Source: Leucoraja erinacea
Lineage: Eukaryota
DNA length: 64,000 bases
Assembly (NCBI RefSeq): GCF_028641065.1
Contig: NC_073384.1
Coordinates: forward strand, 72,044,001-72,108,000
Direction of reading: 5' to 3'
The notes under the pieces were generated by a model. The model saw nothing but the letters and a program-made list of their open reading frames with translations, searched no databases and had not been told where the DNA came from. The position numbers and the translations under genes are program-made. Each line of letters begins with the position of its first letter. Positions within the stretch are counted from its first letter, which is position 1. Shown one piece after another: positions 1,022 to 62,872 of the stretch.

Positions 1022-1243
1022 GACAGACACAAAATGCTGGAGTAACTCAGCGGGACGGGCAGCATCTCTGGAGAGAAGGAATGGGTGACGTTTCGGGTTG
1101 AGACCCTTCTCAGACTGAAGAAAGGTCTCGACCCGAAACGTCACCCATTCCTTCTCTCCAGAGATGCTGTCTGCCCCTCTGAGTTACTCCAGCATTTTGT
1201 GTCTATCCTCGGTGTAAACCAGCATCTGCAGTTCCTTCTTACA
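1022..1243. mobile_element. Penelope-derived fold-back (palindromic) short element with hammerhead motif
   Basis: gacacaaaatgctggagtaactcagcggg...cttctcaga|ctgaagaaaggtctcgacccgaaacgtc...gagttactccagcattttgtgtc; the arms are inverted copies. Confidence 0.8.
1115..1146 (+). ncRNA. Minimal type I hammerhead ribozyme motif (family 1)
   Basis: CUGAAGA-a-aggtc-tc-gaccc-GAAAC-GUC-accc: conserved core, stem II with a mismatch at its base, loopless palindromic stem III. Confidence 0.6.
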
Positions 1244-1819
1244 CAGCTGTTTACTGCAGACTTGTAGAAGTGTTTGGCAACATGCTAAATCTCCTCAAAC
1301 TTCTTGGTGAGCTTTCTTTGTGAATGCTTGGGAGATCATTCTTGAGTTGATTTTCACATTTTCGGGGCTAATAATATCATCCAATGTGCAACATCGCTTT
1401 TCGCATTTATTAAAAACATTATATTAAAAGCCTGTTACTCAACTTAATGCATGAATACATGCTGATATTTGCCAAGATGATCCATGCTTCGTAATTTCAT
1501 GGGGCACTCATGAAACAGAACTCAATCTGTTCACACACTTGTGGGGAATGCTTAGGCACCAGCAGACAGGTGTTCCCCCTCACCCAGATTGTCTCTCACC
1601 TCATGGCAGCCATTTGTGTTGCCGCTACATAATTACTATGGAGATTGTTTCTGCTTTGCTCTGACAACCATTATTTTATTCAATAGCTGCAAACTCTGTC
1701 GACAGCTGTTTCACAAACCAAGATTTTTAGTGCATGATTCAAAATGAAAACCACCTTAATTACTTTTATAAGTTCACTAGACCAAGTGCAGACCCGTTGG
1801 GTCTGTTTCCCCAACGGCG

Positions 1820-2625
1820 TTGGCGGGGGGGGGGGCTGCGGCTTCACACTAACCTTAACTGCCCCCCAAACACACAGGTGGGGGGAGGGGGGGGGGAGAG
1901 AAGAGGGGAGGGAAGGGAGAGGAGAAGGAGGAAACGGGACCGATTTTGGAGAGAAAGGAGAGCGGGGTAGGGGGTGAGAGAGGGGGATGGGGAGAGAGAT
2001 GTGGGGGGGGGGGGGGGGGAGGGGGGGGGGAGGGAGAGGGGAAAGGTGGGGAGGAGAGGGGAGGGGAGAAGGGAGGAGAGAGTGGGAAGAGTGGGGGAGG
2101 AGGAGGGAGGGGTAGGGGGGAGGGGAGGAGGAGGAGGGGTAGGGGGAGTGATGGAAAGAGGGACAGAGGGATAGGGGGAAGGGGCGGGGGGAGAGAGGGA
2201 AGTGGGTAGGGTAGAGGGGGAAGGGGGGGGGGGAGAGAGGGGATGGGAGAGGGGTGAGGAGAGGGGGAGAGGGGGAGGAGAGAAGGGGGAGAGAAGTGGA
2301 AGAGTGGGGAGGGAGGGACGGGTAGCAGAAGTGGTGGAAGAAGGACGGGGGAGTGGTGGAAGAGGAACAGAGGGGTAGGAGGAAGGGGTGGGGGAGAGAG
2401 GGGAAGGGAGGGGAAGAGAGAGGGGTGGGGGAGGAGAGGGGTGGGGTAAGGGGAGAGAAGTGGAAGAGTGGGGAGGGAGGGGTAGGGGGGGGTGGTGGAA
2501 GTGGGACAGAGGGGAAGGGGGGGGGCTGGGGGGAGAGAGGGAAGGGGGTGGGGGGAGAGAGGGAAGGGGGGGTGGGGGAGAGAGGGGATGGGTGGGAGAG
2601 GGGAGGGGGGTGAGGAGAGGGAAAC
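1820..2625 (+). repeat. G/A-rich low-complexity purine tract
   Basis: About 800 nt of almost only G and A, with many G runs; it generates the spurious Pro-rich and Gly-rich ORFs. Confidence 0.95.
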
Positions 2626-2626
2626 A

Positions 2627-3145
2627 TATAGAAACATAGAAATTAAGTGCAGGAGTAGGCCATTCGGCCCTTTGAGCCTGCACCACCATTCAATATGATC
2701 ATGGCTGATCATCCAACTCAGTATCCCGTACCTGCCTTCTCTCCATACCCTCTTATCCCTTTAGCCACAAGGGCCACATCTAACTCCCTCTTAAATATAG
2801 CCAATGAACTGGCCTCAACTACCCTCTGTGCCAGAGAATTCCAGAGATTCACCACTCTCTGTGTGAAAAAAGTTCTTCTCATCTCGGTTTTAAAGGATTT
2901 CCCCCTTATCCTTAAGCTGTGACCCCTTGTCCTGGACTTCCCCAACATCTGGAACAATCTTCCTACATCTAGCCTGCCCAACCCTTTAAGAATTTTGTAA
3001 GTTTCTATAAGATCCCCGCTCAATCTTCTAAATTCTAGCGAGTACAAGCCGAGTCCATCCAGTCTTTCTTCATATGAAAGTCCTGACATCCCAGGAATCA
3101 GTCTGGTGAACCTTCTCTGTACTCCCTCTATGGCAACAATGTCTT
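2627..3145 (-). mobile_element. CR1 (HER1-like) LINE, 5'-truncated 3' end
   Basis: ORF2 C-terminus [13 protein letters not shown]...RTRGHSLRI...FFTQRVVNLWNSL, followed by the 3' UTR and an (atagaaac)n tail. Confidence 0.9.
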
Positions 3146-4124
3146 TGAGCATTGGGCATTGTGACATCACACGATGGAACGTTCACCAGGGGCCGGGGCT
3201 GGTGCTGATTCTATGGGTGAGAAGCCAGTTTATGGAAAAGATGTCGGTGATTCTGCGTCTGGTTTTGGAGTTGCAGGGAATCAAAGGAAGAAAGGCTGCC
3301 GGCAGCCGTCCATGTAAATGGATCCATTCCAATTGGACATCTGCGAGCATTGGGCATTGTGATTGGATATCTGCGAGTATTGGGCATTGTGACATCACAC
3401 GATGGAAACGAATCAAAAGGAAGAAAGGCAGCCGGACGGCAGGCGGCAGCCACAGACTTTTATACAACTAGACCAAGTGCAGACCCGTTGGGTCTGCTCC
3501 CCCAATGATGTGATCCCCCAACCCAATATTCCACCATGCACCCGTCTCCTCCAATGGAACTGAAGCCGTTCCCAAATGTAAGATTCCAGCACTCCCCTGC
3601 CTCCCTCAGCAGTGGATTAAAAAAAAATCCAATTGCACCTTCCCTGCCTGCTGCAGCAGTGAAAGGTTCAGAGTGTTCCTATCTTGCAACTATGTTTTGA
3701 AGTGTGTGACAGCTGATAGGATGGAACAGCCGTCAACGAATCAAAACGAAGAAAGGCAGCCGGACGGCAGCGGGTCGGATGGGCACGAGAGACTTTATAT
3801 ATTAACTACTAGACCAAGTGCAGACTCCCCCAATGATGTGATCCCCCAACCCAATATTCCACCATGCACCCGTCTCCTCCAACGGAACTGAAGCCGTCCC
3901 AAATGTAAGATTCCAGCACTCCCCTGCCTCCCTCAGCAGTGGATTAAAAAAAAATTCCAATTGCACCTACCCTGCCTGCTGCAGCAGTGAAAAGTTCAGA
4001 GTGTTCCTGTCTTGCAACTTTGTTTCGAAGTGTGTTGGAGGCTGATAGGAAGGAGCAGCCGTCAACGAATCAAAAGGCAGAAAGGCAGCCGGACGGACGA
4101 TATAATGATAGATAGAAGATAGAT

Positions 4125-4583
4125 AGTTCAAAAGTGACAGGAGCAGAATTAGGCCATTTGGCCCATCAAGTCTACTCCGCCATTCAATAATGGCTGATCT
4201 ATCTTCCCTCTCAAACCAATTCTCCTGCCTTCCCCCCATAACCCCCGAGACCCGTACTAATCAATCATCTATCTATCTCTGCCTTAAAAATATCCACTGA
4301 CTTGGCCTCCACAGCCTCCTGTAGCAATGAATTCCACAGATTCACCACCTTCAGACTGAAGCAATTTCTCCTCATCTCCTTCCCAAAGGAACGTCCTTTA
4401 ATTCTGAGGTTATGACCTCTAATCCTAGACTCTTTCACCAGTGGAAACACCTTTTCCATATCCACTCTATCCAAGCCTTTCATTATGCTGTATGTTTCAA
4501 TGAGGTCCCCCCTCATCCTTCTAAACTCCAGCGAGTACAGGCCCAGTGCCGACAAACGCTCATCATATGTTAAACCGCTCATT
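4125..4583 (-). mobile_element. CR1 LINE 3' fragment
   Basis: ORF 4265-4582 [17 protein letters not shown]...VVNLWNSL. Confidence 0.9.
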
Positions 4584-5014
4584 CCATTTATTTAAAAAGT
4601 TGTGTAAATTTCCTGACGTTTTGATGGTGATGAGATTGGGTATAAGCACTACACATGGTTGCTGTTTAGAGCATCTATGAGGTTAACTCCCATGTTCAGT
4701 TTTTTGCTATTGTGCTTGATTAATTCTTGAATAGCTGACACCAGTAGTAAACATGGCAGCCCATCCAAGTCAAATCATGTTCTTGGATGAAAGACAATAA
4801 GCTTCTGTACAGAACAGCGACATAAAAAACAAGAAAGCTTGAAGCAATCAGAGTGCAATTCATAGGAAACCTATTAAATGAAAGTCCATTCGACTGTGGA
4901 GGACATTTCAAATTTGCTTCGAACTAAGCTTCTCCTTTAGGAGTTTTGCACAACATTATATTGTTGGACAGGATAAACCTTGGTGTACGGAATAAGGTTT
5001 AAACATTTGTTTAA

Positions 5015-5700
5015 AATCAGAATCAGAATTTATTCGCCAAGTATGTTTTGCAACATACGAGGAATTTCACTGGCCAGGTCAGTCATACTCCTACACATTC
5101 CTCACTGTGATGGAAGGCGGAATAAAGTTCAAGTCCTTCCTTTTGTTCTTCCTCGGTCGGGGGCCTCGAGCCCTCCGTTGACGGGACGGTCTTGACTCCC
5201 ATAGCCGGTGGCGTTCGGGCCCTCCACGTCGAGGCGTTGAGCTCCTGCACCAGGGGGATGTCAGCTCCCCCATGCTGGGCAATCGAACCTCTCGTCGGGG
5301 CTGGACGAACCTTCCGCGGGTGTTGGAGCTCCCGACTAGCCTCTCCCGAGACTGCGAGCCCTTGATGGTAAGTCCACGGTGATCACGGTGGGAGCGATCC
5401 CAGGCAAGGGATCCGCTCCGATGTTAAGTCCGCGCCCCGCGGTGGGGCTCAAGGCAGTTTGAGGAGGCCTCCAACTCCATCGATGGTAGGCCGCAGAGAC
5501 CGGGGAATGTGATCCGAAAATTGATCATATCTCCGGGAAGGTAGGAACTTGAAAAAAAGTTTCCCCCGATCCCCTGCCCCCTCCCCCACATAAAACATAC
5601 CGAAGTACATTAAAACAAGCATTTTAACGCACTAAAAAATAACAAAAAGAAAGAAAAAACGAACTGACTGCTGGCAGGGCAGCCATCTCCTGGTGGTCTT
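5015..5700 (-). mobile_element. GC-rich non-autonomous retroelement with Rex1/L2-type 3' tail
   Basis: Tail (atcaga)n-tttattcgccaagtatg...aggaatttc resembles the tails at 36260 and 24214; GC-rich body. Confidence 0.55.
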
Positions 5701-6629
5701 CTAAAAGGAGGATTTTAAAAGTGCCCATGTATAAGCTTGTCTAGAGGTGGCACTGTGGTTCAGTGCATTGTGTAACTGGCAGGAAGTAGAACCATTTAAT
5801 CTTGGGCACAGTAACATATCATGTAAAAAAACTCATTCACAACCGAATGATTTACATCAGCAAGGATCCCCTTACGGACTGAGACTTAGCAATCATGACA
5901 GGTAAATGGGAGAATAAAGTATTTGGGAAATAATACTTGAAAAAACGCAATCGTTATTTCGACAAACTGTTAAGCTTGGTAAGATCACAAGTGATAGGAG
6001 AAGAATTAGGCCATTCGGCCCATCAAGTCTACTCCACCATTCAATCATGGGTGGTCAATCTCTCCCTCCTAACCCCTTTCTCCTGCCTTCTCCCCATAAC
6101 CCCTGACACCTGCACTAACCAAGAATGTTCAAAGGTTTGTGCTTTTAAGTGCCTTGAATAAAGGCAAATTGATAGGTTTAATGAAGTGTTTTGATAAAGA
6201 GAAAGTACACAAAGTATTTCACTTCCAGTTGAAAGCAACCTGTGTGCTGTACACACAATGCCTGATGTAAACTACGACAGCAAGCGTGAATGCTTGTTGG
6301 CACAATCTCCCTTACCAGTAGGGGTATTCACAGTTTTGGCAAATTAATACCACTTAGTTTGCCAACACATTTCCCAGAACGTTGCTCGCTGGCTGCTGCA
6401 ATCACAATTAATTATTACATAAAATATGTAGGAGCCATTTCATGGCAGCTAATCTGTGAATGGATTGTGCATTCCTTTTAATTTCTCTTCCTTATGGATT
6501 CTGGCAGCAAGCAATGCTTGCTCATCACCTAACCCGAGTGCATAAATGCCAGGATTCACCAATTTCCTCAGCTGCATTACAATAAATAAATGTTACCTCT
6601 AGAAATAAATACAGGGATTCAAATATATA

Positions 6630-6985
6630 GACAATAGACAATAGGTGCAGGAGGAGGCCATTCGGCCCTTCGAGCCAGCACCGCCATTCAATGTGATCAT
6701 GGCTGATCATCCCCAATCAGTACCCCGTTCCTGCTTTCTCCCCATATCCCCTGACTCCGCTATCTTTAAGAGTCCTATCTAGCTCTCTTGAAAGCATCCA
6801 GAGAACCTGCCTCCACTGCCCTCTGAGGCAGAGAATTCCACAGACTCATAACTCTCTGTGAGAAAAAGTGTTTCCTCGTCTCCGTTCTAAATGGCATACT
6901 CCTTATTCTTAAACTGTGGCCCCTGGTTCTGGACTCCCCCAACATGTTTCCTGCCTCTAGCGTGTCCAAGCCTTTAACATGAATT
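6630..6985 (-). mobile_element. CR1 LINE 3' fragment
   Basis: RTRGHSLRI...FFSQRVMSLWNSLPQRAVEA with a (tagacaa)n tail. Confidence 0.85.
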
Positions 6986-7164
6986 CCCAAGATACAGTGA
7001 GATCCTGCTCTGCAAATTAAACTAGGTCTGTGCTAATCAATTCAAACTGAACTGAAATATTCTTGCACTGGAAACACCATTCAGTTTTAAATGGGTATAA
7101 AACATATATTGTTATTTCAGGCTGATGCCAGATAAAACAAGATTTTAAAGAAGCATTGTGCAGG

Positions 7165-7430
7165 AAGAAAATGCAGATGCTAGTAAAGATACAAAAAGCT
7201 GAATTAGCTCAACAGCATCTCTGGAGAAAAGGAACAGGTGACATTTCTGGTCGAGACCCTTCTTCAGACTGAGAGTCAGGGGAAAGGGAAACGAGAGATA
7301 TAGACGGTGATGTCGAGAGATATAGAACAAATGATTGAAAGATATGCAAAAAATTAATGATGATAAAGGAAACCGGCTGTGTTATCTGAGGCCCAGGTGA
7401 GAACGAGTATAGACAATGAGACTCAACAGA
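7165..7430 (-). mobile_element. Penelope-like element 3' fragment with degenerate hammerhead
   Basis: Same terminal sequence as 53562-53930; minus strand ctgaagaagggtctcgaccagaaatgtc. Confidence 0.7.
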
Positions 7431-7447
7431 TGACAAGGCACATTGTT

Positions 7448-7571
7448 TAAGAAGGAACTGCAGATGCTGGAGAATCGAAGGTACACAAAAAAGCTGGAGA
7501 AACTCAGCGGGTGCAGCAGCATCTATGGAGCGAAGGAAATAGGCAACGTTTCGGGCCGAAACCCTTCTTCA
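7448..7571 (-). mobile_element. Short hammerhead-bearing element (family 2) with 16-bp TSD
   Basis: Flanked by gacaaggcacattgtt and gacaagacacattgtt; minus strand CUGAAGA-a-ggguu-uc-ggccc-GAAAC-GUU. Confidence 0.8.
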
Positions 7572-9204
7572 GACAAGACACATTGTTCGTTTTGATGAAG
7601 GATGTGAATTCTGACAGCACGCAGTGCTTTATTCACTTTCTTTTAAGAATTATGATAAGATTAACATTGGGATATATGCACAGTTGAAATTTAAACAATC
7701 ATACAAAGATCTAAGTGGAAGTCTAGCCATAACATCACCTGTGCCAGAATATTTCTTTAGGCCAACGTTTGATGAGAGTAGTTCACGTTTAAATTATAGT
7801 GTTTTATTTGTAATTGTCCACTGTATATTGTGTTGTTACTTGCGGGCAGAGCACCAAGGCAAATTCCTTGTATGTATACAGACTTGGCTAATAACATTTA
7901 TTCAATTCAATTCAATTTATTCAAGATTTTATCCATTTTAGTGCATATAATCTATCCATTTCTATTGCAGATCTTATGAAAAACATTATGTTGCAACTGA
8001 TGCAATGGCATGGCAAACAACGTTAGAAAGGTGATTTAACTGCTAATTTTCAAGAAAGGCTATAATATGAGATTTCAGTAGGCACTTTCCTGGTGTCTCG
8101 TTTAAATGTACATGGTTCAATTTCAGCAAATGATCAGATACATCAAGTTGTAACAGTACTGATACGTGATCCTAGATTCAGAGCCTCTCAGGTCAGGTCA
8201 CTTCTTGGTAAATTGTTTGATAATTAACCCTAACCCCAATTAAATAATTTGCAGATGCTGCACAACTCCTTGATCAAATAAATACTTAAGTACAATCAAT
8301 GCATCATTCCACTCTTATGTTTCAGATATCCAAAATGGTGTAGATACTCCATGTTAATCTAGTATCTCTGCCAGGAATTCATGTGCTTGTACATTGTGGC
8401 TATGCCAACCTAGTTCATAACTGCTTTCATTCATTGAACTCTGACAACATATAGTCCAATTCAACTGTACGAAAGAACTGCAGATGCTGGTTTAAATCGA
8501 AGGTAGATACAAAATGCTGGAGTAACTCAGCGGGACGGGCAGCATCTTTGGAGAGAAGGAATGAGTGACGTTCTCGACCCGAAACATCGCCCATTCCTTC
8601 TCTCCAGAGAAGGAATGCCTGTCCCGCTGAGTTACTCCAGCATTTTGCGCCTACCTAGTCCAATGCATGATTAATTCAAGGAACACACAATACTAAATGT
8701 GCATTTAAAACAAACTGCTCGACTGAGGGCCCAGATGATTGGCATCCGCTGCAAATTCGTAATCCAAGCAAACCAAGCGGTGGGAAGTTTGATTTCCCGT
8801 TCCAAGATTACTTTAAATATTGTAATTCCACATTACCCTTTCATTTCACTCCTGTTATTGGGAAGAAGATATAGGAGCCTGAAAACTGTAATATCCAGGT
8901 TCAGGAGCAGCTACTTCCCGACAATCTTCAGGTTATGAAACACCACAGCCTCCAAAATAGGCTTCGAACTACACCGATTTGGGGACATTACTTTAGACTT
9001 TACTGCATCATTGTTTGTTTGTTTGTTTGACACATATTCAGATACACACACACACACACATATATGTAAATATATATGTTTAGGAAGGAACTGCAGATGC
9101 TGGTTTAAACCAAAGATAAACACAAAAAGCTGGAGTAACTCCGTGGGTCAGACAGCATCGCTGGTGGGTCGAGTCGGACGAGTCTGGGTCGCGTCTGAAG
9201 TTGG

Positions 9205-9895
9205 TGGAAAGGGACAAGAGCTTCAAATTCCGGGGGGGTGCACATCTCTGAAGATCTCTCCTGGTCCGAGAACACTGATGCAATTATAAAGAAAGCACAT
9301 CAGCGCCTCTACTTCCTGAGAAGTTTACGGAGTGTCGGTATGTCAAGGAGGACTCTCTCGAACTTCTACAGGTGCACAGTAGAGAGCATGCTGACCGGTT
9401 GTATCGTGGCTTGGTTCGGCAGCTTGAGCGCCCAGGAGCGGAAAAGACTCCAAAAAGTAGTAAACACTGCCCAGTCCATCATCGGCTCTGATGTCCCTAC
9501 CATCGAGGGGATCTATCGCAGTCACTACCTCAAAAAGGCTGGCAGCATCATCAAGGACCCACACCATCCTGGCCACACACTCATCTCCCCGCTACCTTCA
9601 GGTAGAAGGTACAGGAGCCTGAAGACTGCAACGTCCAGGTTCAGAAATAGCCGCTTCCCCACAGCCATCAGGCTATTGAACTCAACTCAAACAAAACTCT
9701 GAACATTAATAGACCATTATCTGTTTATTTGCACTTTATCTGTTTATTTATTCATGTGTGTGTATATTTATATAATGGTATATGGACACACTGATCAGTT
9801 CTGCATTCATGCCTACTATATTCTGTTGTGCTGAACCAAAGCAAGAATTTCATGGTCCTATCTGGGACACATGACAATAAACTATCTGAAATCTT
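9205..9895 (+). mobile_element. Rex1/Babar-type LINE 3' end
   Basis: ORF 9238-9702 KKAHQRLYFLRSLR...FYRCTVESMLTGCIVAWFG...LPSGRRYRSL...SRFPTAIRLLN, the typical Rex1 RT C-terminus. Confidence 0.85.
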
Positions 9896-10015: not shown

Positions 10016-10062
<47 letters not shown>

Positions 10063-10134: not shown

Positions 10135-10831
10135 AGGGCCTGTCCCATTTACGTGTCCTTGGCACGCAAATTACTCGACCTCGTGGTCGCTTTGAGCCGC
10201 GATGGTCCTGCGAAGGTCGGGCGCGATTACATGCGTACGCACAGCCGTCTGGAGCACGTGACGTCATTTGAAGATGGACACAAAATGCAGGAGTAACTCA
10301 GCGGGACCGGCAGCATCTTTGGAGAGAAGGAATGGGTGATGTTTCGGGTCAAGACTCTTCTTCAGTCTGAAAAGAAGGGGTTTGACCGGAAAAGTCACCC
10401 ATTGCTTCTCTCCAGTGATGCTGCCGGTCCCGCTGAGTTACTCCTGCATATTGTGTCTATCTTCAATTTTATTGGCCCCGCTCTGGGAGTAGAAGTGGGG
10501 GCGGATCCGGACCGCAACGGCCGTGAGCCCCAGGCCGAGTTCGGCGATCGTTTGCCTGCTTCTGCTGCTGTTGGAGGTGAGACGTTGCGTCGCGCCAGGG
10601 TCTTGGGCCTGTCCCACTTTGGCCGTCAGTTACGCGACAGGCCGTTGGCGCGCGAAGATTTTGTTCACTACAAAAATTTCGGAGCCCCACGCGATGTCGC
10701 GCACAACAACATACCCCTCCGCGCTTCTCAGTGGGACCGGCCCCGCGCGGCCACACGATGCCCGTGCGCCTCAACGCAACCACGAGGTCGCGTAATTTGA
10801 GTGCCAAGGACAGGTAAGTGGGACAGGCCCT
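10135..10831. mobile_element. PIF/Harbinger-type MITE carrying an internal Penelope-derived palindrome
   Basis: TIR agggcctgtccca...tgggacaggccct with subterminal inverted arms; internal gacacaaaatgcaggagtaactcagc... palindrome at about 10270-10465. Confidence 0.8.
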
Positions 10832-11671: not shown

Positions 11672-12822
11672 CCAGAGATAAACACAAAAAGCAGGAGTAA
11701 CTCAGTGGATCAGACCGCAACTCTGGAGAAAAGGAATAGGTGACATTTTGGGTCGAGGCCCTTCTTCAGATCTGAAGAAGGGCCTCGACCCGAAACGTCA
11801 CATATGAAAGCTGGAAGTGGTGGCGCTGTCCTGGCAGCAGTGGATCGCCGGCAGTCCGTTTGTTTTTACTTTTTTGTGGTTCTTTTTCGTTTTGTCTAGT
11901 TAAGTTTTTGGTTTTTAGGTTGTGTTTATGTGGGGGGGGGGGGGGTGAAACAGGGCTTGCTGTCTCTCCCTTCGGGGGAATGCGACTTTTTTGTCGTATC
12001 CCCCTTCTCTGCCTCCGTCTGCGCTGAGGCCTAATGGCGGAGCTGGCGACCTCGAGACTCCGGAGGCTGCCAGTCAGGACTCACCCTGGGCTCGCTCCTG
12101 TGAGGGCGGCCCAGCTCGGGGCTGGAACGGCACTCCCGTGAGGGGCTGTGACGCTCCCGTGAGGGCGGCCTGGCGCGGGGCTGAGACTCTCCCGTGAGGG
12201 GCTGTGGCGCTCCCGTCGGAGCGGCCCAGCTCGAGGGAGGAACGGCGCTCCCGTCGGAGCGGCCCAGCTCGAGGGAGGAACGGCACTCACGTGAGGGCGA
12301 TCCGGCTCGGGGCTGGAACGGTGCTCCGGTGGCTGGGACGGCGTTCTGGCGGCGGTGACCTGAGTCCGGGGTTGAGCCGCGGGCCGGCGGCTGCGTCCGC
12401 TGGACTGGAGGGCGGCAGCTTCGACCACCCCGGGCCGCGGTGTTTGAGCCGGCCCGTTCGCGGGGTTCGGTGAGCCGCGGGACTGTTTGTACCATCGCCC
12501 GGTGGGGAATCGCCTCAGCGCAGAGGGAGAAGAGGAGGGAAGAGACTGCAGCCCTAAGATTTTTGCCTCCACCACAGTGAGGAGGTGCTTGGAGGACTCA
12601 CTGTGGTGGATGTTAATTTGTGTTTATTGTTGTTTATTATTGTATTATTGTATGTATGACTGCAGGCACGAAATTTCGTTCAGACCGTAATGACAATAAA
12701 GGTAATTCTAATTCTAATTCTAATATTCCTTTTCTCCGGAGATGCTGTCTGACCTGCTGAGTTACTCCAGCTTTTTGTGTTTATCTTCGGTTTAAACCAG
12801 CGTCTGCAGTTCCTTCTTACAC
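11672..12822. mobile_element. Penelope-derived palindrome split by a GC-rich retroelement insertion (about 11803-12722)
   Basis: The left arm and core ctgaagaagggcctcgacccgaaacgtc (11772-11799) resume as attccttttctcc at about 12723. The insert has internal GC-rich tandem repeats (about 12090-12330) and an aataaa-(aattct)n tail. Confidence 0.75.
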
Positions 12823-13554
12823 ATTTTGTGCAGCTAAATCATGCTGGTCAACTGGGAGAAAACATAGATTCAATGACTTTGATTCTCAACAGGCACATCA
12901 ATTTAAATGTCAGAATTGACAACTGTTCAGTTCTTGCTCTCTTTGATTGGATAAGCTTTAGTAGTTCACTTGGGTACATGAATTGGAAACCAGGAATTCC
13001 ACACCTGGAAGAGAGTGAATAGGGAGTGGGTGAATGAGGGGGGACTAAATGCTGTTACTCAAAGTCAAAATCCTCCCTTAATTCCCAATGATCTGAAACT
13101 CTCAGCCAAAAAATGCTGACTTTAATAGCTACCAGCAACTTACCTCACCTTTGCTACAGAAAGAGAATATATCAAAGTGTTACCTTCTCCTCAATTAACA
13201 ATCCCTTTTCACATGCACAAAATCTATCACTCATGGTCTATCGACCGTTAATGATGAAGCATAGCCATCTGCAAATAGGTTATTGGAAACAAATTATATC
13301 CATTTCACAAATAAATGATGAACATGACATATAGCTGAATCCTGAACTAATTTCATACTTGTTTCAGAGTTTCTCAATAACCATATAACCATATATAACC
13401 ATATAACAATTACAGCACGGAGAACAGGCCATCTTGGCCCTTCAAGTCCGTGCCGAACACTTATTTTCCCCCAATGAAAAGACTAATTGCAAATGGTACA
13501 TTTAAAATTTGATAACTTGGTACTAAACAAGTTTTTTGAAGCTATTGGGATGAT

Positions 13555-13630
13555 GAGTAACTCAGCGGGACAGGCAGCATCTCTGGAGAGAAGGAATGGG
13601 TGACGTTTCGGGTCGAGACCCTTCTTCAGA
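13555..13630 (-). ncRNA. Penelope-derived fragment ending in an intact minimal hammerhead motif (family 1)
   Basis: Minus strand u-CUGAAGA-a-GGGUC-uc-GACCC-GAAAC-GUC-accc at 13597-13630. Confidence 0.7.
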
Positions 13631-15120
13631 TAGAGTGGCACATTATTCAACTTTTTAAGATTTAAGCTTTCAATTTTCTGACAACTGTCAGGAAATCCAT
13701 CACTCAGGTTTGCCCTCAGGCTTGATCAAGTCTACTGTGAAATAACATTATTAACTGTTCATTAAAAAACAGACACAATGTGCTGTAGTAACTCGGTGGG
13801 TCAGGCAGCATCTCTGGGGAACATGGACCCTTCTTCAGAGGTAAACTGTTTGTTTATTCCAATGCAATAATTCATAAAATAATTCAAACAAGATCAGCCT
13901 ATATACAAGTGTCACTGCATAAATGTCCACTTTTTTTCCGTACGGTTACCTTTTTCCCTCAATGAACCAGAATACCATCCTTTTTTCTGGCACAAGTACT
14001 GAAACATAAGCTTTGTCACTATTTAAAAACCTGTAATTACCAACAAACAGATCCAGTCCAAAAATCTTTGGAAGATTTTGTGAAATGCATTGAACCTTAC
14101 AATGAAAATAAGTTGAGAAGAATATTCAATGAGTAGGTTTCTAGTGTACCATCATACATTTCTAGTGTAGCCTGAGTCCATTAGATTTGGAAGATGCTCT
14201 CAACTGTCTTGGAGAAAAAGTCACGGGCATGTTACTGTTTAAGCGCCAAACTCATAAATTGAAAGTCCCTGCCAAACTCTGGACGGTTGTCAGGGAGGGC
14301 TATTTTCAGTTGACTTTAACGGAACTACCAACCAAGGGCTGAGTGATCGGCAGCCTGCTGCATAGCATTTCCTGTACGATACAAGTGAGTGGTAATTTTG
14401 TCACCTCGACAAGCTTCCTACTCTCCCCACAATCTGCCCGGCCGTTAGCTTACCTCACATGTTGGGTTCAACTGTAACGACTGCTGGGCGAGATAATCAA
14501 CTGCAACAATACCCTTGTCAGGACCGTTGATTCACTACATTCGTGTCATATTTGAAGCAACAAAACTCATCCCCTCACCACCAACAGTGCAACTCAGCCG
14601 CACATGACACCAAGGAACTCTCGTACAAATCTCAACGTACAGCAGCAGCCGCTGGAGAAGCTTGTGCTAATCTTTTAAAAAGTCACAGTGTGACCAGGAA
14701 GAAACAGTCTGGAATTGTTTTAGCTTTGCCATAGCTGACTGAGGTGGCATGGGATCAAATTAGAAACCGTACACTAACCAGAAATCTGATCTCGCTTTCA
14801 ATGTAATGAAACTAGAAAATTAAAATAAATGTGATTCTAAATTATCTTTTATCTACATGGGTCCGAAGAAGGGTCTTGACCCGAAACGTCGGCTAGTCTT
14901 TCTCTCCAGAGAAGCTGTCTGTCCCGCTGAGTTACTCAAGCTTTTTGTGTCTATCTTCAGTTGGCGCCAGCATCTGCAGTTCCTTCCCACATACTAAATT
15001 ATTTAATGTTGACTCAGCTCACTTGTTGATCAGTGAATCAACAAACTAGAAGTTTGAGGAGCAAAATATGGAATTGGTGTGTACGTTAGACTGATGCTGC
15101 GGTGAATCAGCAAGGAACTA

Positions 15121-20655: not shown

Positions 20656-20656
20656 T

Positions 20657-28600: not shown

Positions 28601-28702
28601 GTAAATGTTGCAAATGTTGTTCAATTATATACCTTGCTAAAGTGGGCCAACTGGCAATGTCCGATGTCACAGATCCCAGAGAGACCTCATCTTTATTAGT
28701 AT

Positions 28703-46535: not shown

Positions 46536-47009
46536 CATGTTACAAGCAAAGCTGGCCATGCGATCCCAGTGCGATATTTGCTCTGGTATTTTATGTAATT
46601 CACATGTGTAATCGATAATGTTTTATTATTAATGTTTTATGTGTCATTCCTAACTGTCACTGTATGTCATGTTGTCACTTGCGGGCGAAGCACCAAGGCA
46701 AATTCCTTGTATGTGAATACTTGGTCAATAAACTTATTCACCCATTCATTCATGCTAAATATATGCTAAATGGATGATGTGACCACAGAACCTGCATTGA
46801 TACAACACCTCTAATATATTGTAATGATCCAAGATCCTTCACAGTCTGAAAGGTCTCAATCCGAAACATCACCCATTCCTTCTATCCAGAGATGCTGCCT
46901 GGCCCACTGAGTTACTCCAGCATTTTGTGTCTATTATCAAACAAAATCCGAAAACCAAACCATGTATTTTGTGTCTAAATGGTTGGTCAAATACACGGGA
47001 GAGGAATGG

Positions 47010-51498: not shown

Positions 51499-52087
51499 TT
51501 AGCAATTCGTGATGGCAGAACAGTAACTAAACATCAAGGGATCCATTTTAATATGAGGAATATAACTAGTAAAATAGATTCACTCGAAGCATATATTATT
51601 ACGGAGTTCTATATTATTGCTATCACTAAGGCACGGATCAAGGATGGGCAAGATGGGCAATTTGATGAACTAGGATAAAGACATTTCAGGTGAAACTGAG
51701 GGGAGAGTAAAAGAATAGGAACCATTAAGGTCAAAGATTACATTAACCGTAGTCAAAGATTGCATTTAGGGTAGGTAAACAAAAATGCTGGAGAAACTCA
51801 GCAGGTGCAGCAGCATCTATGGAGCGAAGGAAATAGGCAACATTTCGGGCCAAAACCCTTCTTCAGACTGAACATTTAGGGTACCTTGGAAGAGTCCACA
51901 AATGAGACCATATGGATTGAGACTAGTAAAAGAAGGTGTCATCACTTTGCAGGTGATATATTATAGACCTCCCAACTGTCATCAGGAGATAGAGGAACGG
52001 ATAAGTGGGAAGTTATCTCGGAGCTACAGTAAAAATGGGGTGACCCTACTGAGGGATTCCAATTTCCCCAATAACTGGATTGCCTTA

Positions 52088-52571: not shown

Positions 52572-53561
52572 TTAACGTTTTGTTTATTATATATAATGTG
52601 TATATTATGCTGACAGGCCTGTTATTCTGCTGCAAGTAAACATTTCATTATTCCACTGTTGGTACCCATGACAATTTAAACTGTTGACTTTCTCGCGATT
52701 GGTGAGAATGTGGAAGGGCGGTTGTTTTGAATGTGCAAAGAGTTTTAGACTGACGAGAGATGAAATGAGGTGAAAATGGCAGATGACGTCTAATTCAGAC
52801 ACATATGAGGCGATGCACTAATAAAGATAGGCCCCAACCGGGGGAATTCAATTTCCCCAAATGCTAACTGGATCGCCTTAACGTTAAAGGCTTAGCAGGA
52901 AACAACTTTTTGAGGAGTATCCAGAGGAACATTTTGACATAGAAACAAGAAAATAGTGCAGGAGTAGGCATTAGGCCCTTCGAGCCTGCATGATTCAATA
53001 TGATCATGCTGATCATCCAACTCAGTATCCCGTACCTGCCTTCTCTCCATACCCCCTGATCCCCTTAGCCACAAGGGCCACATCTAACTCCCTCTTAAAT
53101 ATAGCCAATGAACTGGCCTCAACTACCCTCTGTGGCAGAGAGTTCCAGAGATTCACCACTCTCTGTGTGAAAAATATGTTGTTGACAAAATATGTTGTTG
53201 ACACAATATGTTGTTAGACCGCAAGAGGAAGCAGCATGACTTGACCTTGTCTTGGGGAATGTACCTGGTCAAGTGGAGGGAGAATCAATTGGGAAACATT
53301 TGGGTGACGGTGACCAGAAATTCCACTTATTTAAGGTGATTATGGAAAAAGATAGGAATAGGCCAGTAATTACAGTCTTGAATTGTGCAATGCCAATAAC
53401 ATTAACACAAGAAAGGTAGCAAATTGGGAGCACCCATGTGCAGATAAATCAACGTCAGCATAGTGGAAAGCATCCGGAGGAGAAATAACAAGAGCTCAAG
53501 GTCAACATCAAGTAAGGATAGAGAGCAGGGGAAACAATTTAGAGAACTCTGGATATTGAGG

Positions 53562-53930
53562 GTAGACACAAAAAGCTGGAGTAACTCAGGCAGCATCTCT
53601 GGATAGAAGGAATGGGTGACATTTCAGGTCGAGACCCTTCCTCAGACTGAGAGTCAGGGGAGAGGGAAACACGGAGATATGGAAGGGTAAGGTGTGAAAA
53701 CGAGACATCAAAGGGGATGGGGTTCAAGGTAAATGTAGAACAGATCATTGTTAGCTAGGGGAAGGTGACAACGAAGTATAGAGAGATAAAATTTAATCAG
53801 GAGGACAGTTAGACTGGTCAGAGAACTAGGATGAGGGATGGATGGAGAGAGAGGGAAAACAAGGGTTATTTGAAGTTAGAGAATTCAATATTGGTACCGC
53901 TGGGGTGTAAGCTGCCCAAGCAAAATATTG
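53562..53930 (-). mobile_element. Penelope-like element 3' end: GIY-YIG ORF C-terminus, 3' UTR and hammerhead motif
   Basis: 53928-53866 (-) translates IFCLGSLHPSGTNIEFSNFK*, resembling the Penelope GIY-YIG C-terminus; downstream cucucagu-CUGAGGA-a-gggucucgaccu-GAAAU-GUC. Confidence 0.8.
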
Positions 53931-54528
53931 AGGTTGGAAAAAGTGAAAAATGGAAGCTTATGGCAGGCAGAGAGAACTTATGGCAGGGAGACCTGTTGAA
54001 GGTATATGGAGTGCTTCAAAAGAAAATTAGGCAAGTCTAGAGCATTATGCAAAATCACTGGCAAACAGGATAAATCTGAAGTCCTTCTCTGAGTATACTA
54101 AGGGCAAAAAATGAATAACCGGAGAAAAAGTGGGGACCGTTAGGACACCAGGAACAATTGCTGAAGCTGTGGCTGAGGTCCTAATTGAATACTTTTTTTT
54201 TGATATTCACATAGGAATCGCACTTTACAGTTGGAAAATTCAGTGAACGGGTAAGTAAACGTCTCAGCAGGTCTCCATAAATAAAGAGATGGTACTTGAT
54301 GTCTTGGCAGGCTTAAAGGGTTGGAGACAATTTATCCTGGGCGGCTGCAGGAGTTAAAGGAAGAGATGACCAGGGTTGGCTGAGATTGTTACATCTTTGC
54401 TGGATACAAGTCACCCTTTTCAAGAAAGGCAACAGGGAAAAGCCTGGTCATTAGCAATATGTGATCTGGGTGTGCAGGTCCACAGTTCCTTGACAAAATG
54501 TGAAATTCCTCACTAAAAAAATGCTTTA

Positions 54529-54941: not shown

Positions 54942-55689
54942 TTACCTTCACAAGGAAAAACAAATCAACAGAGTAACAATGCAACATAAATTCCCTTTGC
55001 ATTGTCCACCTAATTGACTCTTTGCTATCAAGCTTATGCTCAGTGTGCCATATTTACTGCAGTTGTCCTTCAAAACTGAATTATACTATTATTTATCCAA
55101 TAGACCTTGAAACCTGGCATGGCCCAAATATTAAACAACAGACATTTCAATGGGATAATGATTTGCATGTAAATTGTGATAATATGTAAATCACAATAAA
55201 ATTACTAAACAGAATTGAATTACAGATTTGTATATCATTAAAGAAAGCAATTTGGCTGATAATGTTATCTTGCATTTTTATGAGCAATTACCCAACCAGC
55301 AGCTGCATTCCCACCATCTCACTCTTGTTTACTTTGAAACAACTTCAAAATTATGAATGAAAGGAACATGTTTCCAAACCCATTCGGAGAAGTATGATAA
55401 ATTAACATACTAGAGATCTTCACAATGACAGAGTCTGTGCAATAACTAATCACGATGTCAGAGAGGAGCCCTTAACCCGCAGTGTCACTTAAAGATTGTG
55501 CATCAGAATAGATTGTGAATAATACCGTATGTATCCCCTGGATGGGGCATTTAGGGCACATTCAATGATCACAAGACGGCACATTCAAATCCTGATATAG
55601 ATACAAATTGCTGGAGTAACTCAGCGGGACAGGCAGCATCTCTGAAGAGAAGGAACTCGTGAAGTTTCGGACCTGAAACTTCACCCATA

Positions 55690-56152
55690 ACCTATGCTGC
55701 CAATTACAGCACGGAAACAACTCTCGGCATTTGCCGTCTATCTTTTTTCCCCTTAGTAAACCCTGCATCGTACCATAACCCTTCCTACCCACTCAAATCC
55801 TGCCTATCCAATTTATTTTTAAATGATACCAATGAACCTGCCTCCACCACTTCCACTGGAAGCTCATTCCACACCGCTACCACTCTCTGAGTAAAGAAGT
55901 TCCCCCTCATATTACCCCTAAACTTCTGTCCCTTAATTCTGAAGTCATGTCCTCTTGTTTGAATCTTCCCTATTCTCAAAGGGAAAAGCTTGTCCACATC
56001 CACTCTGTCTATCCCTCTCATCATTTTAAAGACCTCTATCAAGTCCCCCCTTAACCTTCTGCGCTCCAGAGAATAAAGACCTAACTTATTCAACCTATCT
56101 CTGTAACTTAGTTTTGAAACCCAGGCAACATTCTAGTAAATCTCCTCTGCAC
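55690..56152 (-). mobile_element. Young CR1 LINE 3' fragment
   Basis: ORF nearly identical to the one at 62144-62650. Confidence 0.85.
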
Positions 56153-57655: not shown

Positions 57656-59306
57656 CAGTGCCCTCCATAATGTTTGGGACAAAGACCCATCATTTATTTA
57701 TTTATTTGCCTCTCTACTCCACAATTTGAGATTTGTATTAAAAAATATCACATGTGGTTAAAGTGCATAATGTCAGATTTTATTAAAGGCCATTTTTATA
57801 CATTTTGGTTTCACCATGTAGAAATTACAGCTGTGTTTATACACAGATCCCCCCCCCATTTCAGGGCACCATAATGTTTGGGACACATGGCTTCACAGGT
57901 GTTTGTAATTGCTCAGGTGTGTTTAAATGCCTCCTTAATGCAGGTATAAGAGAACTCTCAGCACCTAGTCTTTCCTCCAGTCTTTCCATCACCTTTGAAA
58001 CTTTTATTGCTGTTTATCAACATAAGGTCCAAAGTTGTGCCAATGAAAGTCAAAGAAGCCATTATGAGACTGAGAAACAAGAATACAACTGTTAGAGACA
58101 TCAGCCAAACCTTAGGCTTACCAAAATCAACTGTTTGGAACATCATTAAGAGGAAAGAGAGCACTGGTGAGCTTACTAATCGCAAAGGGACTGGCAGGCC
58201 AAGGAAGATCTCCACAGCTGATGACAGAAGAATTCTCTCTATAATAAAGAAAAATCCCCAAACACCTGTCCGACAAATCAGAAACACTCTTCAGGAGTCA
58301 GGTGTGGATTTGTCAATGACCACTGTCCGCAGAAGACTTCATGAACAGAAATACAGAGGCTACACTGCAAGATGCAAATCACTGGTTAGCTGCAAAAATA
58401 GGTTGGCCAGGTTACAGTTTGCCACGAAGTGCTTAAAATATCAACCATAGTTCTGGAAAAAGGTCTTGTGGACAGATGAGACGAAGATTAACTTATATCA
58501 GAGTGGTGGGAAGAGCAAAGTATGGAGGAGAGGAGGAACTGCCCAAGATCCAAAGCATACCACCTCATCTGTGAAACACGGTGGTGGGGGTGTTATGGCC
58601 TGGGCAAGTATGGTTGCTGAAGGTACTGGCGCACTTATCTTCACTGCTGATGGTAGCAGCATAATGAATTCTGAAGTACATAGTATATAGACAAGTTCAG
58701 CTCAAGTTCAAATAAATGCCTCAAAACACATTGGCAGGCGGTTCATTCTACAGCAAGACAATGATCCCAAACATACTGTTAAAGCAACAAAGGAGTTTTT
58801 CAAAGCTAAAAAAATGGTCAATTCTTGAGTGGCCAAGTCAATCACCCGATCTGAACCCAATTGAGCATGCCTTTTATATACTGAAGAGAAAACTGAAGAG
58901 GACTAGCCCCCAAAACAAGCATAAGCTAAAGATGGCTGCAATACAGGCCTGGCAGAGCATCACCAGAGAAGACACCCAGCAACTGGTGATGTCCATGAAT
59001 CTCAGACTTCAAGCAGTCATTGCATACAAAGGATATGCAACAAAATAGTAAACATGACTACTTTCATTTACATGACATTGCTGTCCCCCAAACATTATGG
59101 TGCCCTGAAATGGGGGGACTATGTATAAACACTGCTGTAATTGCTACATGGTGAAACCAAAATGTATAAAAATGGCCTTTATTAAAATCTGACAATGTGC
59201 ACTTTAACCACATGTGATTTTTTTATATTACAAATCTCAAATTGTGGAGTACAGAGGCAAATAAATAAATGATGGGTCTTTGTCCCAAACATTATGGAGG
59301 GCAGTG
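57656..59306 (+). mobile_element. Full-length Tc1-family DNA transposon with long IR/DR-type TIRs
   Basis: TA|cagtgccctccataatgtttgggac...gtcccaaacattatggagggcagtg|TA; TIRs of about 230 bp with ccataatgtttgggac repeated at the outer and inner ends. Confidence 0.95.
58043..59048 (+). pseudogene. Tc1 transposase pseudogene
   Basis: HTH region with GRPRK, then WTDETK, QQDNDPKH and WPSQSPDLNPIE motifs; stop at 58448-58450 and frameshifts near 58680 and 58810. Confidence 0.92.
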
Positions 59307-60430
59307 TAAGTTCCTTGAAAGAGGCGTCACAGGTAGGTAGGGTGTTCATGAAGGCTTTTGGCACATTGGCCTTCATCAGTTGGGTTATTGAGTATAGAAG
59401 TTGGGGATGTTATGTCACAATTGTACAGGACGCTGATGAGGCCACATTTGGAGTATTGTGCAGGAAGCAAGTGCAAATGCTGGTTTAAACCAACGATAGA
59501 CACCAAAAGCTGGAGCAACTCAGCTGGACAGTCAGAGAAGCAATGGGTGGAGTTTTGGGTCGAGACCCCTCATCAGAATTCTTGGGAGTATTGTGATCAG
59601 TTTTGGTCACCCTGTTATAGGAAAGATGTTGCTAAACTGGATATGGTGCAGAGAAGATTTACGAGGATGTTGCCGGGTCTCAAGGGCCTGAGCTATCGGG
59701 AGAGGTTGTGTCGACAGCACCGAGATCGGGATTGAACCCAGGTCTCTCACACGATGAGGCAGCAGCTCTACCAACTGGGCCACCCCTCAAGTTTTAAACA
59801 TTAATTCAGGTTTCCCTTGCTTTTCAAACTTGCTAGCGTGTTTAGATCAGCGGCTTTACAAGGGAATGGAGATGTGATAGGCAAATCTGGAAGTAAATAC
59901 TGCAACCACACAACTCCCTTCATGTGTAAGGAAGCCTCTAAGCCACACTTAGAAACCCCTGTCCTGAAAACATCCTATCAAATATCCCTGGCCTCGAACT
60001 GCTCTTAATTTGAATAAAAAAACCCTAATGTACTTTGTGGTACGAACATGTCCAAAATTTGGATTTAATTCATCAATAGCTCAATTTGCACAATATGTAT
60101 CTGGTATGTAGAGCTTCCACGTGTCCAATGGACTGATATCCATATAAGACCATAAGACACAGGAGCAGAATCAGACCATTCAGCCCATCAAGTCCACTCC
60201 GCCATTCAATCATGGCCGATCAATATTTCCTTCTCAACCCTGTTCTCCTGCCTTCTCTCTGCAACCTTTGACACTATTACTAATCAATAATCCATCAATC
60301 TCTGCCTTAAAAAATACCCAAATGACTTGGCCTCTGTAGCCGTCTATGGCAATGAATTCCACAAATTCACCACCATCTGACTCAAAAGATTTCTCCTCTT
60401 TGGCATTGATTACCTCATCCAATTTATTGA

Positions 60431-60630: not shown

Positions 60631-61392
60631 TAACATACAACTTGAAAAGTAGCTTTCCCAACATCAACCCCTGCAGAACACCACTAGTCACCGGCAGCCA
60701 ACCAGAAAATATTCCCTTTATTGCCAGTCTTTGCTCATCAGTCAATCTTCTACCCATACTTGTACCTCATCTCTAACACTTATTTTGTTCAGCAGCTTCA
60801 CGTGTGGCACCTTATCAAATGCATTCCGAAAATTCAAAGTAAACAACATCCACTGACTTTCCTTTTAGTCTGTCCTGCTTGTTACCTCCTCAAAAAAACG
60901 GCAACAGCTTTGTCAGGCAAGAACTCCCCTTCACAAAACCATGCTGACATCACCCTATTTTATCATGTGCTTCCAATCTCCTGCTTTCTCCACTTACTTG
61001 TGATGCGCGAAGCACCTGCTGAAAACTCAACTGCCTTTCTTCCTAGAATGAGTGAAGTATCAGTTTCAGAGGCGAATACGCGGTAGACACGAGTCTTGCA
61101 AATGTGCCCTCTCAGAATAAGTAACCACTTCCCTTGCGGTAGGAAGATAGGTGGCAGTTCAATTCTTACACTTAATCTGTGAAGGCTCTGTGGGAGATTA
61201 AGGTGCCACGGCGAGATTACTTAAAGCTATCATTATTCACATTATCACTTTGCTGCTAACCATTTCCAGTTTACTAAGTGTTGGGTGAATTGTGACTGAT
61301 GAATTCTGTCACCAGGTAGCCATGCAAACCAATTGTTCTCTGGGCTTCAACTGTTAATTGCTAGGTGAGTGAAAGGCTACGTCTGGATGTTT

Positions 61393-61576
61393 AAGAAGGA
61401 ACTGCAGATGCTGGAAAATCGAAGGAAGACAAAAATGCTGGAGAAACTCAGCGGGTGCAGCAGCATCTATGGAGCGAAGGAAATAGGCAATGTTTCGTCC
61501 CGAAACGTTGCCTATTTCCTTCGTTCCATAGATGCTGCTGCACCCGCTGAGTTTCTCCAGCATTTCTGTCTACCCA
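61393..61576. mobile_element. Family-2 Penelope-derived palindrome (ribozyme centre deleted) with 17-bp TSD
   Basis: gctacgtctggatgttt (61376-61392) and gctacttctggatgttt (61577-61593). Confidence 0.8.
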
Positions 61577-62062
61577 GCTACTTCTGGATGTTTGTTTTAC
61601 CTTGGCGATCTGAGCTCCCTTCTGTCAGGAAGGAAAGAGGACGCCTATGAGTGAGAATAATGGCACATACTGAACAAATGGATGCTGGGCATTTATTGAT
61701 GGTAGAATACAATGCACTTCCATGAATATGAGACCAAATATTAGTAATGGCTGGAGAGACGGGGATGTGAGGAGCTGTTTAGATAGAGCGACAGATCTGG
61801 TTATCAGAATGTTAATTGGTGCATAGAACCGTTTGCTGGAGTAGGATCAAAATAGTACCTTCAAGGGGTTGGGCATTGGCAAATACGACATTTTCTTCCT
61901 CATTCCTAATGCACTGAGGTCATTAATTTACTTGAGGCAGTGAATTCAGAAGCAGCGACTCCTATTTCTGCCACTCATTACTCTGGCCCCCTCCAACAAG
62001 GCTTCTTCTTCCTCTCACTGGTGTTATTCTGTTGTGGAGGAAGGAACTTCATATGCAGGTTT

Positions 62063-62672
62063 AACCATATAACCATATAACAATTGCAGCACGGAAACAG
62101 GCCATCTCGGCCCTACAAGTCCGTGCCGAACAACTTTTTTCCCTTAGTCCCACCTGCCTGCACTCGTACCATAACCCTCCATTCCCTTCTCATCCATATG
62201 CCTATCCAATTTATTTTTAAATGATACCAACGAACCTGCCGCCACCACTTCCACTGGAAGCTCATTCCACACCGCTACCACTCTCTGAGTAAAGAAGTTC
62301 CCCCTCATGTTACCCCTAAACTTCTGTCCCTTAATTCTGAAGTCATGTCCTCTTGTTTGAATCTTCCCTATTCTCAAAGGGAAAAGCTTGTCCACATCAA
62401 CTCTGTCTATCCCTCTCATCATTTTAAAGACCTCTATCAAGTCCCCCCTTAACCTTCTGCGCTCCAGAGAATAAAGACCTAACTTATTCAACCTATCTCT
62501 GTAACTTAGTTGTTGAAACCCAGGCAACATTCTAGTAAATCTCCTCTGTACTCTCTCTATTTTGTTGACATCCTTCCTATAATTGGGCGACCAAAATTGT
62601 ACACCATACTCCAGATTTGGTCTCACCAATGCCTTGTACAATTTTAACATTACATCCCAGCTTCTATACTCA
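62063..62672 (-). mobile_element. Young CR1 LINE 3' end with intact ORF2 C-terminus
   Basis: 168-aa open frame LVRPNLEYGVQFWSP...FFTQRVVAVWNELP; (aaccatat)n tail. Confidence 0.9.
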
Positions 62673-62679
62673 TATAAAC

Positions 62680-62872
62680 CGAAGAAGGACGCAAAAAACT
62701 GGAGTAATTCAGCGGGCCAGAGCGTCTCTGGAGAAAAGGAATAGGTGACGTTTCGGGTTGAGACCCTGGTTCGGTCTGAAGAAGGGTCTCGACCCGAAAC
62801 ATCGCCTATTCCTTTTCTCCAGAGACGTTGTCTGACCTGCTGAGTTACTCCAGTTTTTTGTGACTATCTTCG
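62680..62872. mobile_element. Penelope-derived palindrome with hammerhead motif
   Basis: ggt-CUGAAGA-a-GGGUC-uc-GACCC-GAAAC-AUC-gcc at about 62773-62806, inside inverted arms. Confidence 0.75.

Follow-up and report, generated by a model that had tools for sequence, protein, structure and literature searches.

What are the short repeats with a hammerhead ribozyme motif that recur along a 64,000-nucleotide stretch of the genome of the skate Leucoraja erinacea (positions 72,044,001 to 72,108,000 of NC_073384.1, assembly GCF_028641065.1; here called the window)? A first-pass annotation, made from the letters alone, took them for a non-autonomous, ribozyme-carrying retroelement system derived from Penelope. 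We consider it very probable that they are short insertions of the pseudo-long terminal repeat (pLTR) of Penelope-like elements (PLE) encoding a reverse transcriptase (RT) and a GIY-YIG endonuclease (EN), likely by-products of the full element's enzyme and likely inert once inserted. Judged by their sequence, the repeats are mostly end-pieces of 95-135 bases of such an element, many with a minimal hammerhead motif in which cutting is predicted.

Positions were numbered from the C of the CUGA core (position 0), which places the predicted cut between +27 and +28, and one element copy on one strand is referred to as an arm. Arms in the window were called by BLAST, with natural copies serving as references. 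This identified 39 arms in 29 insertion loci, or one locus per 2.2 kb, and four further partner arms fell below the BLAST length filter. The strict pattern CTGANGA..GAAAC was matched 11 times, nine times by members of the hammerhead-repeat family and twice by chance, and 23 distinct motifs were found at three or fewer mismatches. A type I hammerhead descriptor search, recommended by the first-pass annotation, detected eight window motifs whose core, helix II and triplet are all intact, and 46 such motifs over 864 kb, with none in each of three shuffles, and the dense population of hammerhead repeats reported earlier was thus borne out. An intact motif was retained in 43 of the 319 arms found in the window and genome sample together. 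Both subfamilies, family 1 and family 2, were recovered, each at the terminal repeat of PLEs. An Rfam scan of the window returned no hammerhead family at E<=1, and the hairpin loci gave only sub-threshold miRNA matches.

The longest copy in the window (53558-53935, minus strand) includes the last ~20 codons of a GIY-YIG open reading frame (ORF), the 3' untranslated region (UTR), an intact motif (53618-53645) and a short 3' end, as had been noticed at ~53562-53930. Its terminal peptide is identical to that of longer genomic copies, and an upstream walk in those copies revealed RT, a CxxxxCxxC linker and GIY-YIG. One locus, L060, contains a single frame of 1,193 aa with RT motifs, a Cys linker and, at its C terminus, GIY-YIG, the arrangement of an endonuclease-bearing (EN+) PLE; its profile scores were E 3e-6 for RVT_1, below the curated cut-off, and E 0.012 for GIY-YIG. 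The linker between RT and EN, CNRRRCNTC, fits the CX2-5CxxC of Neptune and presumably marks Neptune rather than Poseidon. A genome search for RT gave 27,603 candidates, many with open frames of 500-1,193 aa, and the family 2 motif was present ~110-130 nt past the ORF stop in 16 of 20 RT-bearing loci that were fetched (two with GUC). L067 is a tandem with a unit of 3,975 nt and the order ORF, 3' UTR, TCAGT, motif, leader and next ORF. All three features of EN+ PLEs, a pLTR arising from a partial tandem, an inverted 5' copy and a one-sided tail, were observed. Family 2 is young and retains open frames as long as 1,193 aa. Family 1 is older and decayed, its parents being represented by copies ~85% alike, in which the 3' UTR has two or more lengths and the motif lies ~113 or ~224 nt past the ORF stop. 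A protein search with the EN piece and a Pfam scan of three EN pieces and an old RT piece found no match, and a PDB search gave nothing useful. The nearest relatives of the element protein are in rays and sharks, in agreement with the elasmobranch host proposed earlier, and the Penelope origin stands, both families being pLTR ends of RT and GIY-YIG PLEs in this genome.

Abundance was estimated from 80 evenly placed 10-kb stretches (800 kb), taken from large contigs only. These contained 280 arms in 230 loci, or one locus per 3.5 kb, which extrapolates from this large-contig sample to ~630,000 loci and ~100,000 intact motifs in the 2.19-Gb genome. Exact 28-mers of the family 1 and family 2 motifs occur 15,042 and 17,430 times, respectively, and the reversed control was absent.

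The ends of the copies indicate how they were made. The 3' ends of arms cluster at ~+79 to +97 and ~+119 to +134 (the +93 and +130 sites), and copies of every length stop at one of these two sites. As both lie downstream of the motif, insertions longer than ~95 nt all carry it. The likely ATG in L067 lies ~165 nt downstream of the motif start, beyond both sites. The 5' ends range from within the leader to beyond -1,000, giving continuous lengths from ~100 bp to the full unit, and 16 of 280 arms reach the ORF. A sharp peak of 5' ends was found at -8 to +3 (112/280 arms), with seven of 280 at the cut site (+25 to +31); the stop rate per base was 0.062 at the peak versus 0.004 at the cut site. 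In a young family 2 set of 93 copies, picked by exact motif so that shorter copies are excluded and with small alignment artefacts, 48 start at -10 to 0 and 33 extend past -60. Because the 5' ends avoid the cut site, the templates of insertion were likely uncut RNA, as found in vitro for the anole element. Target site duplications (TSD) of at least 7 bp flank 26 of 33 short single copies, compared with 3.5% in the control. A SINE (short interspersed element)-like lineage with diagnostic changes of its own was not seen in these 93 copies; by a 12-nt marker, each of the four most frequent 3' haplotypes is found in short copies, in long ones and in those that bear an ORF. Own TSDs together with haplotypes common to ORF-bearing copies therefore favour by-products over a separate lineage, as far as the 12-nt marker goes.

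A further feature, overlooked by the first-pass annotation, is that 14 of the 29 window loci are head-to-head inverted pairs (10 called directly and four with the short partner arms). Over the 800 kb and the window, 60 of 259 sampled loci were such pairs, 57 of them within one family. Among the 53 pairs with classifiable ends, 42 combined a short with a tailed end, 10 were short and short and one was tailed at both ends. This excess of mixed pairs is significant against single-copy end frequencies (P=2e-5, seven unclassifiable pairs dropped). An inverted 5' copy, 98-100% identical, was also found at seven of 20 long loci, with the mixed pattern in six of the seven. The pair junctions differ between loci and often lie at short palindromes in the motif. 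Inverted copies and a one-sided tail are described features of PLEs (10.1101/2021.04.23.441226; PMC3846280).

These observations can be accommodated if the element protein nicks both target strands and reverse transcription starts inside the leader, so that any cDNA longer than ~95 nt would include the motif; both steps are modelled on the anole PLE (PMC11167929). Priming at both target ends, once from the short site and once from the tail site, would then generate the head-to-head pairs. The motif would likely be under selection in source elements only, where cutting would be inefficient and would take place in dimers or with help from the protein. Somewhat short of an even chance is the further step that the pile-up at -7 to -1 represents the 5' ends of capped transcripts begun at a TCAGT initiator, in which case the shortest copies would be complete leader copies and long copies would need read-through RNA.

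Several points weigh against this account. The 5' ends do not fall on one base but scatter between -7 and -1, with TCAGT kept in 26 of 118. Two minor haplotypes (four copies and several singletons) occur in short copies only, and the sharp 5' peak would equally fit a re-copied, SINE-like short RNA driven by a promoter of its own. As BLAST ends shorten in old copies and the references miss some 3' UTR variants, part of the family 1 arms classed as 'short' are in fact long. The two arms of a pair did not resemble each other significantly more than they resembled other copies (P=0.13; P=0.12), and so gave no significant sign of a shared template. RNA reads showed that copies are transcribed, mostly within other transcripts, with 96% running on into unlike sequence (X24); neither a transcription start nor pile-ups of starts or ends appeared in these reads, which are fragmented and dominated by host-transcript copies. 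Finally, L228, alone among 89 family 2 loci, holds a retrozyme-like leader tandem, considered below.

The strongest rival leaves the identity of the element unchanged and explains only the 5' peak, as a pause or template switch of the RT on read-through RNA, caused by a hairpin between core and 3' flank or by a bound protein. We rate it close to an even chance. The stop rate climbs gradually through the motif (0.010, 0.026 and 0.062 per base), predicted folds pair the core and the 5' strand of helix II with the downstream flank, and many pair junctions lie at the motif's short palindromes, all of which favour this reading. Against it, TCAGT precedes the core in all subfamilies and the sequence further upstream is variable. 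TCAGT also fits an initiator consensus. Copying of the cap is established for LINEs (long interspersed elements) as a source of an extra G, and an extra G directly before AGT or GT (-4/-3) was present in 24 of 51 informative singles compared with 29% expected (P=0.006, from two tests pooled post hoc that separately gave P=0.03 and 0.055), with no excess at -5 (4/12). An internal, TATA-less promoter within the pLTR has also been described for the Penelope element of D. virilis (PMC2377424).

Is the motif still a ribozyme? Intact copies contain the core CUGANGA, GAAA and an NUH triplet, an extra A after A9, helix II with G10.1-C11.1 and a loopless palindromic AC-GU helix III. The minimal type I motif and the stem III palindrome proposed in the first-pass annotation were thus confirmed. 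Its 2-nt 'uc' loop for stem II was replaced, and helix II was read as 4 bp with a tetraloop because a 2-nt loop is unable to close in a monomer. In 22 of the 23 window motifs (the deletion-bearing one excluded), 93.6% of helix II cells are paired. Helix I is only 2 bp rather than the expected 4-5 bp: its two pairs hold in 19/22 and 16/22 copies, and the third and fourth fail in 18/22 and 15/22, the parent L067 being alike. The family differences in helices I and II are one-sided (U-A to U-G) and keep pairing, and covariation was not above shuffles (0.139 versus 0.152, with two related lineages only). Of the conserved fold claimed earlier, what holds is the core, identical between the families, and the retained pairing; support from covariation is weak. 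Between families, 0 of 11 core positions changed versus 11 of 58 downstream (P=0.19), so the conservation comparison suggested by the first-pass annotation leans in its favour without reaching significance; in the 3' UTR, 32 of 95 positions changed. Better conservation of the core than the flank (94% versus 87.5%, P=0.002) was confined to an alignment-biased set and was rejected; in copies picked by their ORF (12 of 19, those with the short 3' UTR) it was not significant (9/120 versus 76/672, P=0.26). Predicted folds pair GGGU with the flank past the triplet instead of closing helix II, at energies no better than shuffles; the helix II probability rounds to 0 in all five contexts computed, and a hammerhead-like dimer is predicted at ~-13 kcal/mol versus -21 to -25 for the best dimer. 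Palindromic loci are predicted to fold as one long hairpin without a hammerhead helix (-171 kcal/mol for 1021-1245). As modelled, the fold is weaker than the first-pass annotation held, with a 2-bp helix I, one-sided changes and helix II hidden.

It is possible, though improbable in our view, that even the source elements carry a motif that has ceased to be a ribozyme and is retained as a promoter or as a signal bound by protein. The failing outer pairs of helix I, in the young parent too, the vanishing predicted helix II, the GUU triplet of the young family and the non-significant difference between core and downstream flank would suit such a loss. The identity of all 11 core positions amid 32/95 3' UTR differences and the pairing kept by both stem changes argue against it, as does the 2-bp helix I variant reported in D. 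virilis (PMC4209133). The motif of the anole PLE, which needs its protein in order to cut (PMC11167929), is a further point against it. As published minimal hammerheads cut weakly as dimers and the anole one requires that help, the likeliest reading would be weak, assisted cutting in the source elements.

Much less probable is the system originally proposed, in which short copies would themselves give rise to RNA that the hammerhead cuts or circularises and the PLE enzyme inserts again, in the manner of SINEs or retrozymes. The sharp 5' peak with own TSDs and the very high number of exact 28-mers speak for it, as do non-LTR retrozymes reported as PLE derivatives, one chondrichthyan included (10.64898/2026.07.22.740005), and the single 209-nt tandem at L228. 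None of the 43 window tandem rows is an array of the unit, L228 being the one case among 89 family 2 loci elsewhere, and the 5' ends avoid the cut site. Pair junctions that differ from locus to locus, hairpin-forming palindromes, continuous lengths and the low proportion of arms with an intact motif also argue against it. Shared haplotypes, own TSDs, PLE 3' sites and short-and-tailed pairs together leave a separate non-autonomous system unsupported. The tandem itself (L228:1290-1800) repeats the family 2 leader from the motif to ~+208, thereby including the beginning of the ORF, and is joined by a short arm in inverted orientation; by its arrangement it is a retrozyme-like or template-jump product.

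Three remaining candidates were rejected: a splice acceptor (CAG|TCTGA, where helix I would be completed by an upstream exon), as short copies are preceded by unique flank and GT..AG ends were absent from the 15 joints shown, out of 101, in RNA reads; a conserved CUGA-x-UCAG hairpin upstream, whose first CUGA is absent from many young copies; and a miniature inverted-repeat transposable element (MITE) with a fixed palindrome, as junctions and end types vary.

A wider picture, which we offer tentatively and think unlikely to hold in full, is that priming in the leader limits each capped TCAGT-started transcript to an insertion of 95 or 135 nt. The element would then have an inherent supply of SINE-like copies, from which inserts headed by a hammerhead, along with long hairpins, would have accumulated by the hundred thousand. 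Lacking space for helix I, the hammerhead might act in dimerisation or as a stop signal, so that two RNAs could prime the two ends of a single break.

The head-to-head pairs in the window illustrate the variety of junctions. In the family 1 pair at 1020-1245, both arms start at -5 (a TCAG-A-CTGA junction), the left having the short and the right the tailed end, with a helix II mismatch in the plus arm; a -5/-5 junction is also seen in the family 1 pair at 10268-10469. The junction lies within the motif at 8466-8655 and in helix II at 40457-40650, both without the CUGA core, and in helix II in the family 2 pair at 61388-61575, which is tailed and short and without the core. Both arms at 11676-11805 have a GGGCC helix II variant with a C-A mismatch. 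Intact motifs are present in the pairs at 22638-22771 (22670-22697, plus strand) and 41349-41559 (41413-41440, minus strand). Of the others, 29341-29510 is tailed and short, 31280-31423 has a short right arm, 45024-45181 has a tailed left arm, 40176-40364 has decayed cores, 33634-33783 (family 2) is without the core and 62675-62872 is of family 1.

Among the single copies, the family 2 short insertions are all on the minus strand: 7439-7574 (-2 to +134, tailed, intact motif 7545-7572), 46440-46536 (-2 to +95, intact motif 46507-46534) and 51776-51874 (intact motif 51839-51866). Intact family 1 motifs are in the short insertion from -1 at 13555-13630 (minus, 13602-13629) and the insertion at 48534-48671 (plus, -15 to +128, 48549-48576). 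Further family 1 short insertions on the plus strand are at 14855-14988 (mutated core, CCGA), 39573-39702 (from -5, decayed) and 46842-46940 (deletion in the core), and an old one from -1 with a tail is at 59457-59577 (minus). A family 1 arm at 7154-7307 (minus) extends upstream of its core by ~35 nt into the 3' UTR. Family 1 pieces without the core are at 9073-9164 (minus, 3', tailed), 12725-12824 (plus, 3', tailed), 13769-13820 (minus, fragment) and 55597-55680 (minus, 3'). The core coordinates of the first-pass annotation proved good to ~8 bases (1115+, 11772+, 22670+, 13605-13629-, 41416-41440-, 7548-7572- and 46510-46534-). Its five 'best cores' were correctly placed, but those at 1115+ and 11772+ each break one helix II pair.

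Other ribozymes and repeats were found nearby. A search for other hammerhead families with CTGATGAG gave 92 matches versus 21 in the control, mostly mutated copies of families 1 and 2. A divergent motif in L116 and G000:C20:29074340 (CUGAUGA, helix II AGGUCA/UGACCU, GUA) may represent a rare third family, with two similar among the 92 matches. Window positions 342-405 (plus) match the CPEB3/HDV-like ribozyme at 28.2 bits (Rfam cut-off 35) and are a shorter variant common to L116; across the genome, 59 candidates were scored and 48 attained that cut-off, at up to 64.9 bits. In six of the eight loci L255-L262, the ribozyme's first G is the exact 5' boundary of a young repeat (copies 87-98% alike), four of these repeats run for at least 1.5 kb, and they contain an APE-endonuclease/RT-type ORF, presumably Ingi/Vingi-like. 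The ribozyme core of this repeat closely resembles the mammalian CPEB3 model. HDV-like ribozymes are known at LINE 5' ends (PMC5786205), and a LINE-borne near-twin in cartilaginous fish could bear on the origin of the CPEB3 ribozyme. A literature search found nothing tying this ribozyme to a retrotransposon in a shark, and no CPEB ZZ-domain exon was found on the contig that carries the window.

The window may be largely intronic. A probable host-gene exon rich in Ser, Met, Asn and Gln lies at 27106-27276 (minus) and may be ARID1-like; an atlas search with it gave no usable match. An N-terminal fragment of a Tc1/mariner transposase (HTH_Tnp_Tc3_2, E 3e-18) is at 57950-58450 (plus). An open frame of 331 aa at 33880-34875 (minus) resembles, by eye, a deleted gag/integrase remnant of an LTR retrotransposon and had no Pfam match. 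LINE 3' ends, presumably of CR1/L2 type and several of them recent (<=99% alike), are at 2628-3182, 9199-9702, 28366-28665, 42360-42659, 52932-53231, 55801-56100 and 62199-62498. GC-rich MITE-like inverted repeats with arms of 111-117 bp and spacers of 123-251 bp are at 15488-15972 and 23302-23646.

The genome offers a very large natural data set on PLE insertion, in which the 5' ends point to uncut RNA as the template and the strong pairing of short with tailed ends supports two-sided priming, so far seen in vitro. The intact young subfamily opens questions of start site and cleavage to direct test, and hundreds of thousands of inverted pairs would give long hairpins in host transcripts.

By its features the element is an EN+ PLE with a minimal hammerhead ribozyme (min-HHR) in the pLTR, helix I length being the one departure. 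The class was already described in 2014 (PMC4209133), and the min-HHRs of metazoan PLE pLTRs share the type I core, the extra nucleotide before G10.1, the G10.1-C11.1 pair, the loopless palindromic helix III and the pLTR location. They also occur mostly as single dispersed truncated-PLE copies with some opposite-strand pairs, and in fish they are hosted by Neptune/Poseidon elements. Their helix I is 4-5 bp versus 2 bp here and their helix II 6-8 versus 4 bp; 4,000-9,000 motifs are reported for coelacanth and Xenopus compared with the extrapolated ~100,000 intact motifs here, and the skate motif differs in its low sequence diversity, with two main variants. It may already stand in the alignments of that paper or in the tables of 10.64898/2026.07.22.740005, which include one chondrichthyan genome. 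A literature search, with subscription papers mostly outside its coverage, found no paper on the skate element or its 5' peak. Neptune-type EN+ PLEs (10.1101/2021.04.23.441226; PMC3846280) share the RT, Cys linker, C-terminal GIY-YIG, partial tandems, inverted 5'-truncated copy, 30-40 bp tail at one end and TSDs of ~7-14 bp. The skate element differs in that most insertions are only ~100-135 nt of leader, with the sharp 5' peak at the motif, and in a long Pro-rich N-terminal region; its likeness to Neptune is one of features, not of an RT tree. Non-LTR retrozymes (10.64898/2026.07.22.740005) likewise originate from PLE pLTRs, have a type I hammerhead and are non-coding, but they are tandem hammerhead units, whereas the window copies are monomers or inverted pairs and only L228 is similar. 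A further parallel is the anole Poseidon element PAc (PMC11167929), where RT starts at two internal sites that correspond to the tail, both strands are cut and extended, the RNA template is uncut and reads do not end at the cut site. The PAc ORF begins in helix II and encloses the priming sites, whereas in the skate element the likely ATG lies beyond both 3' sites.

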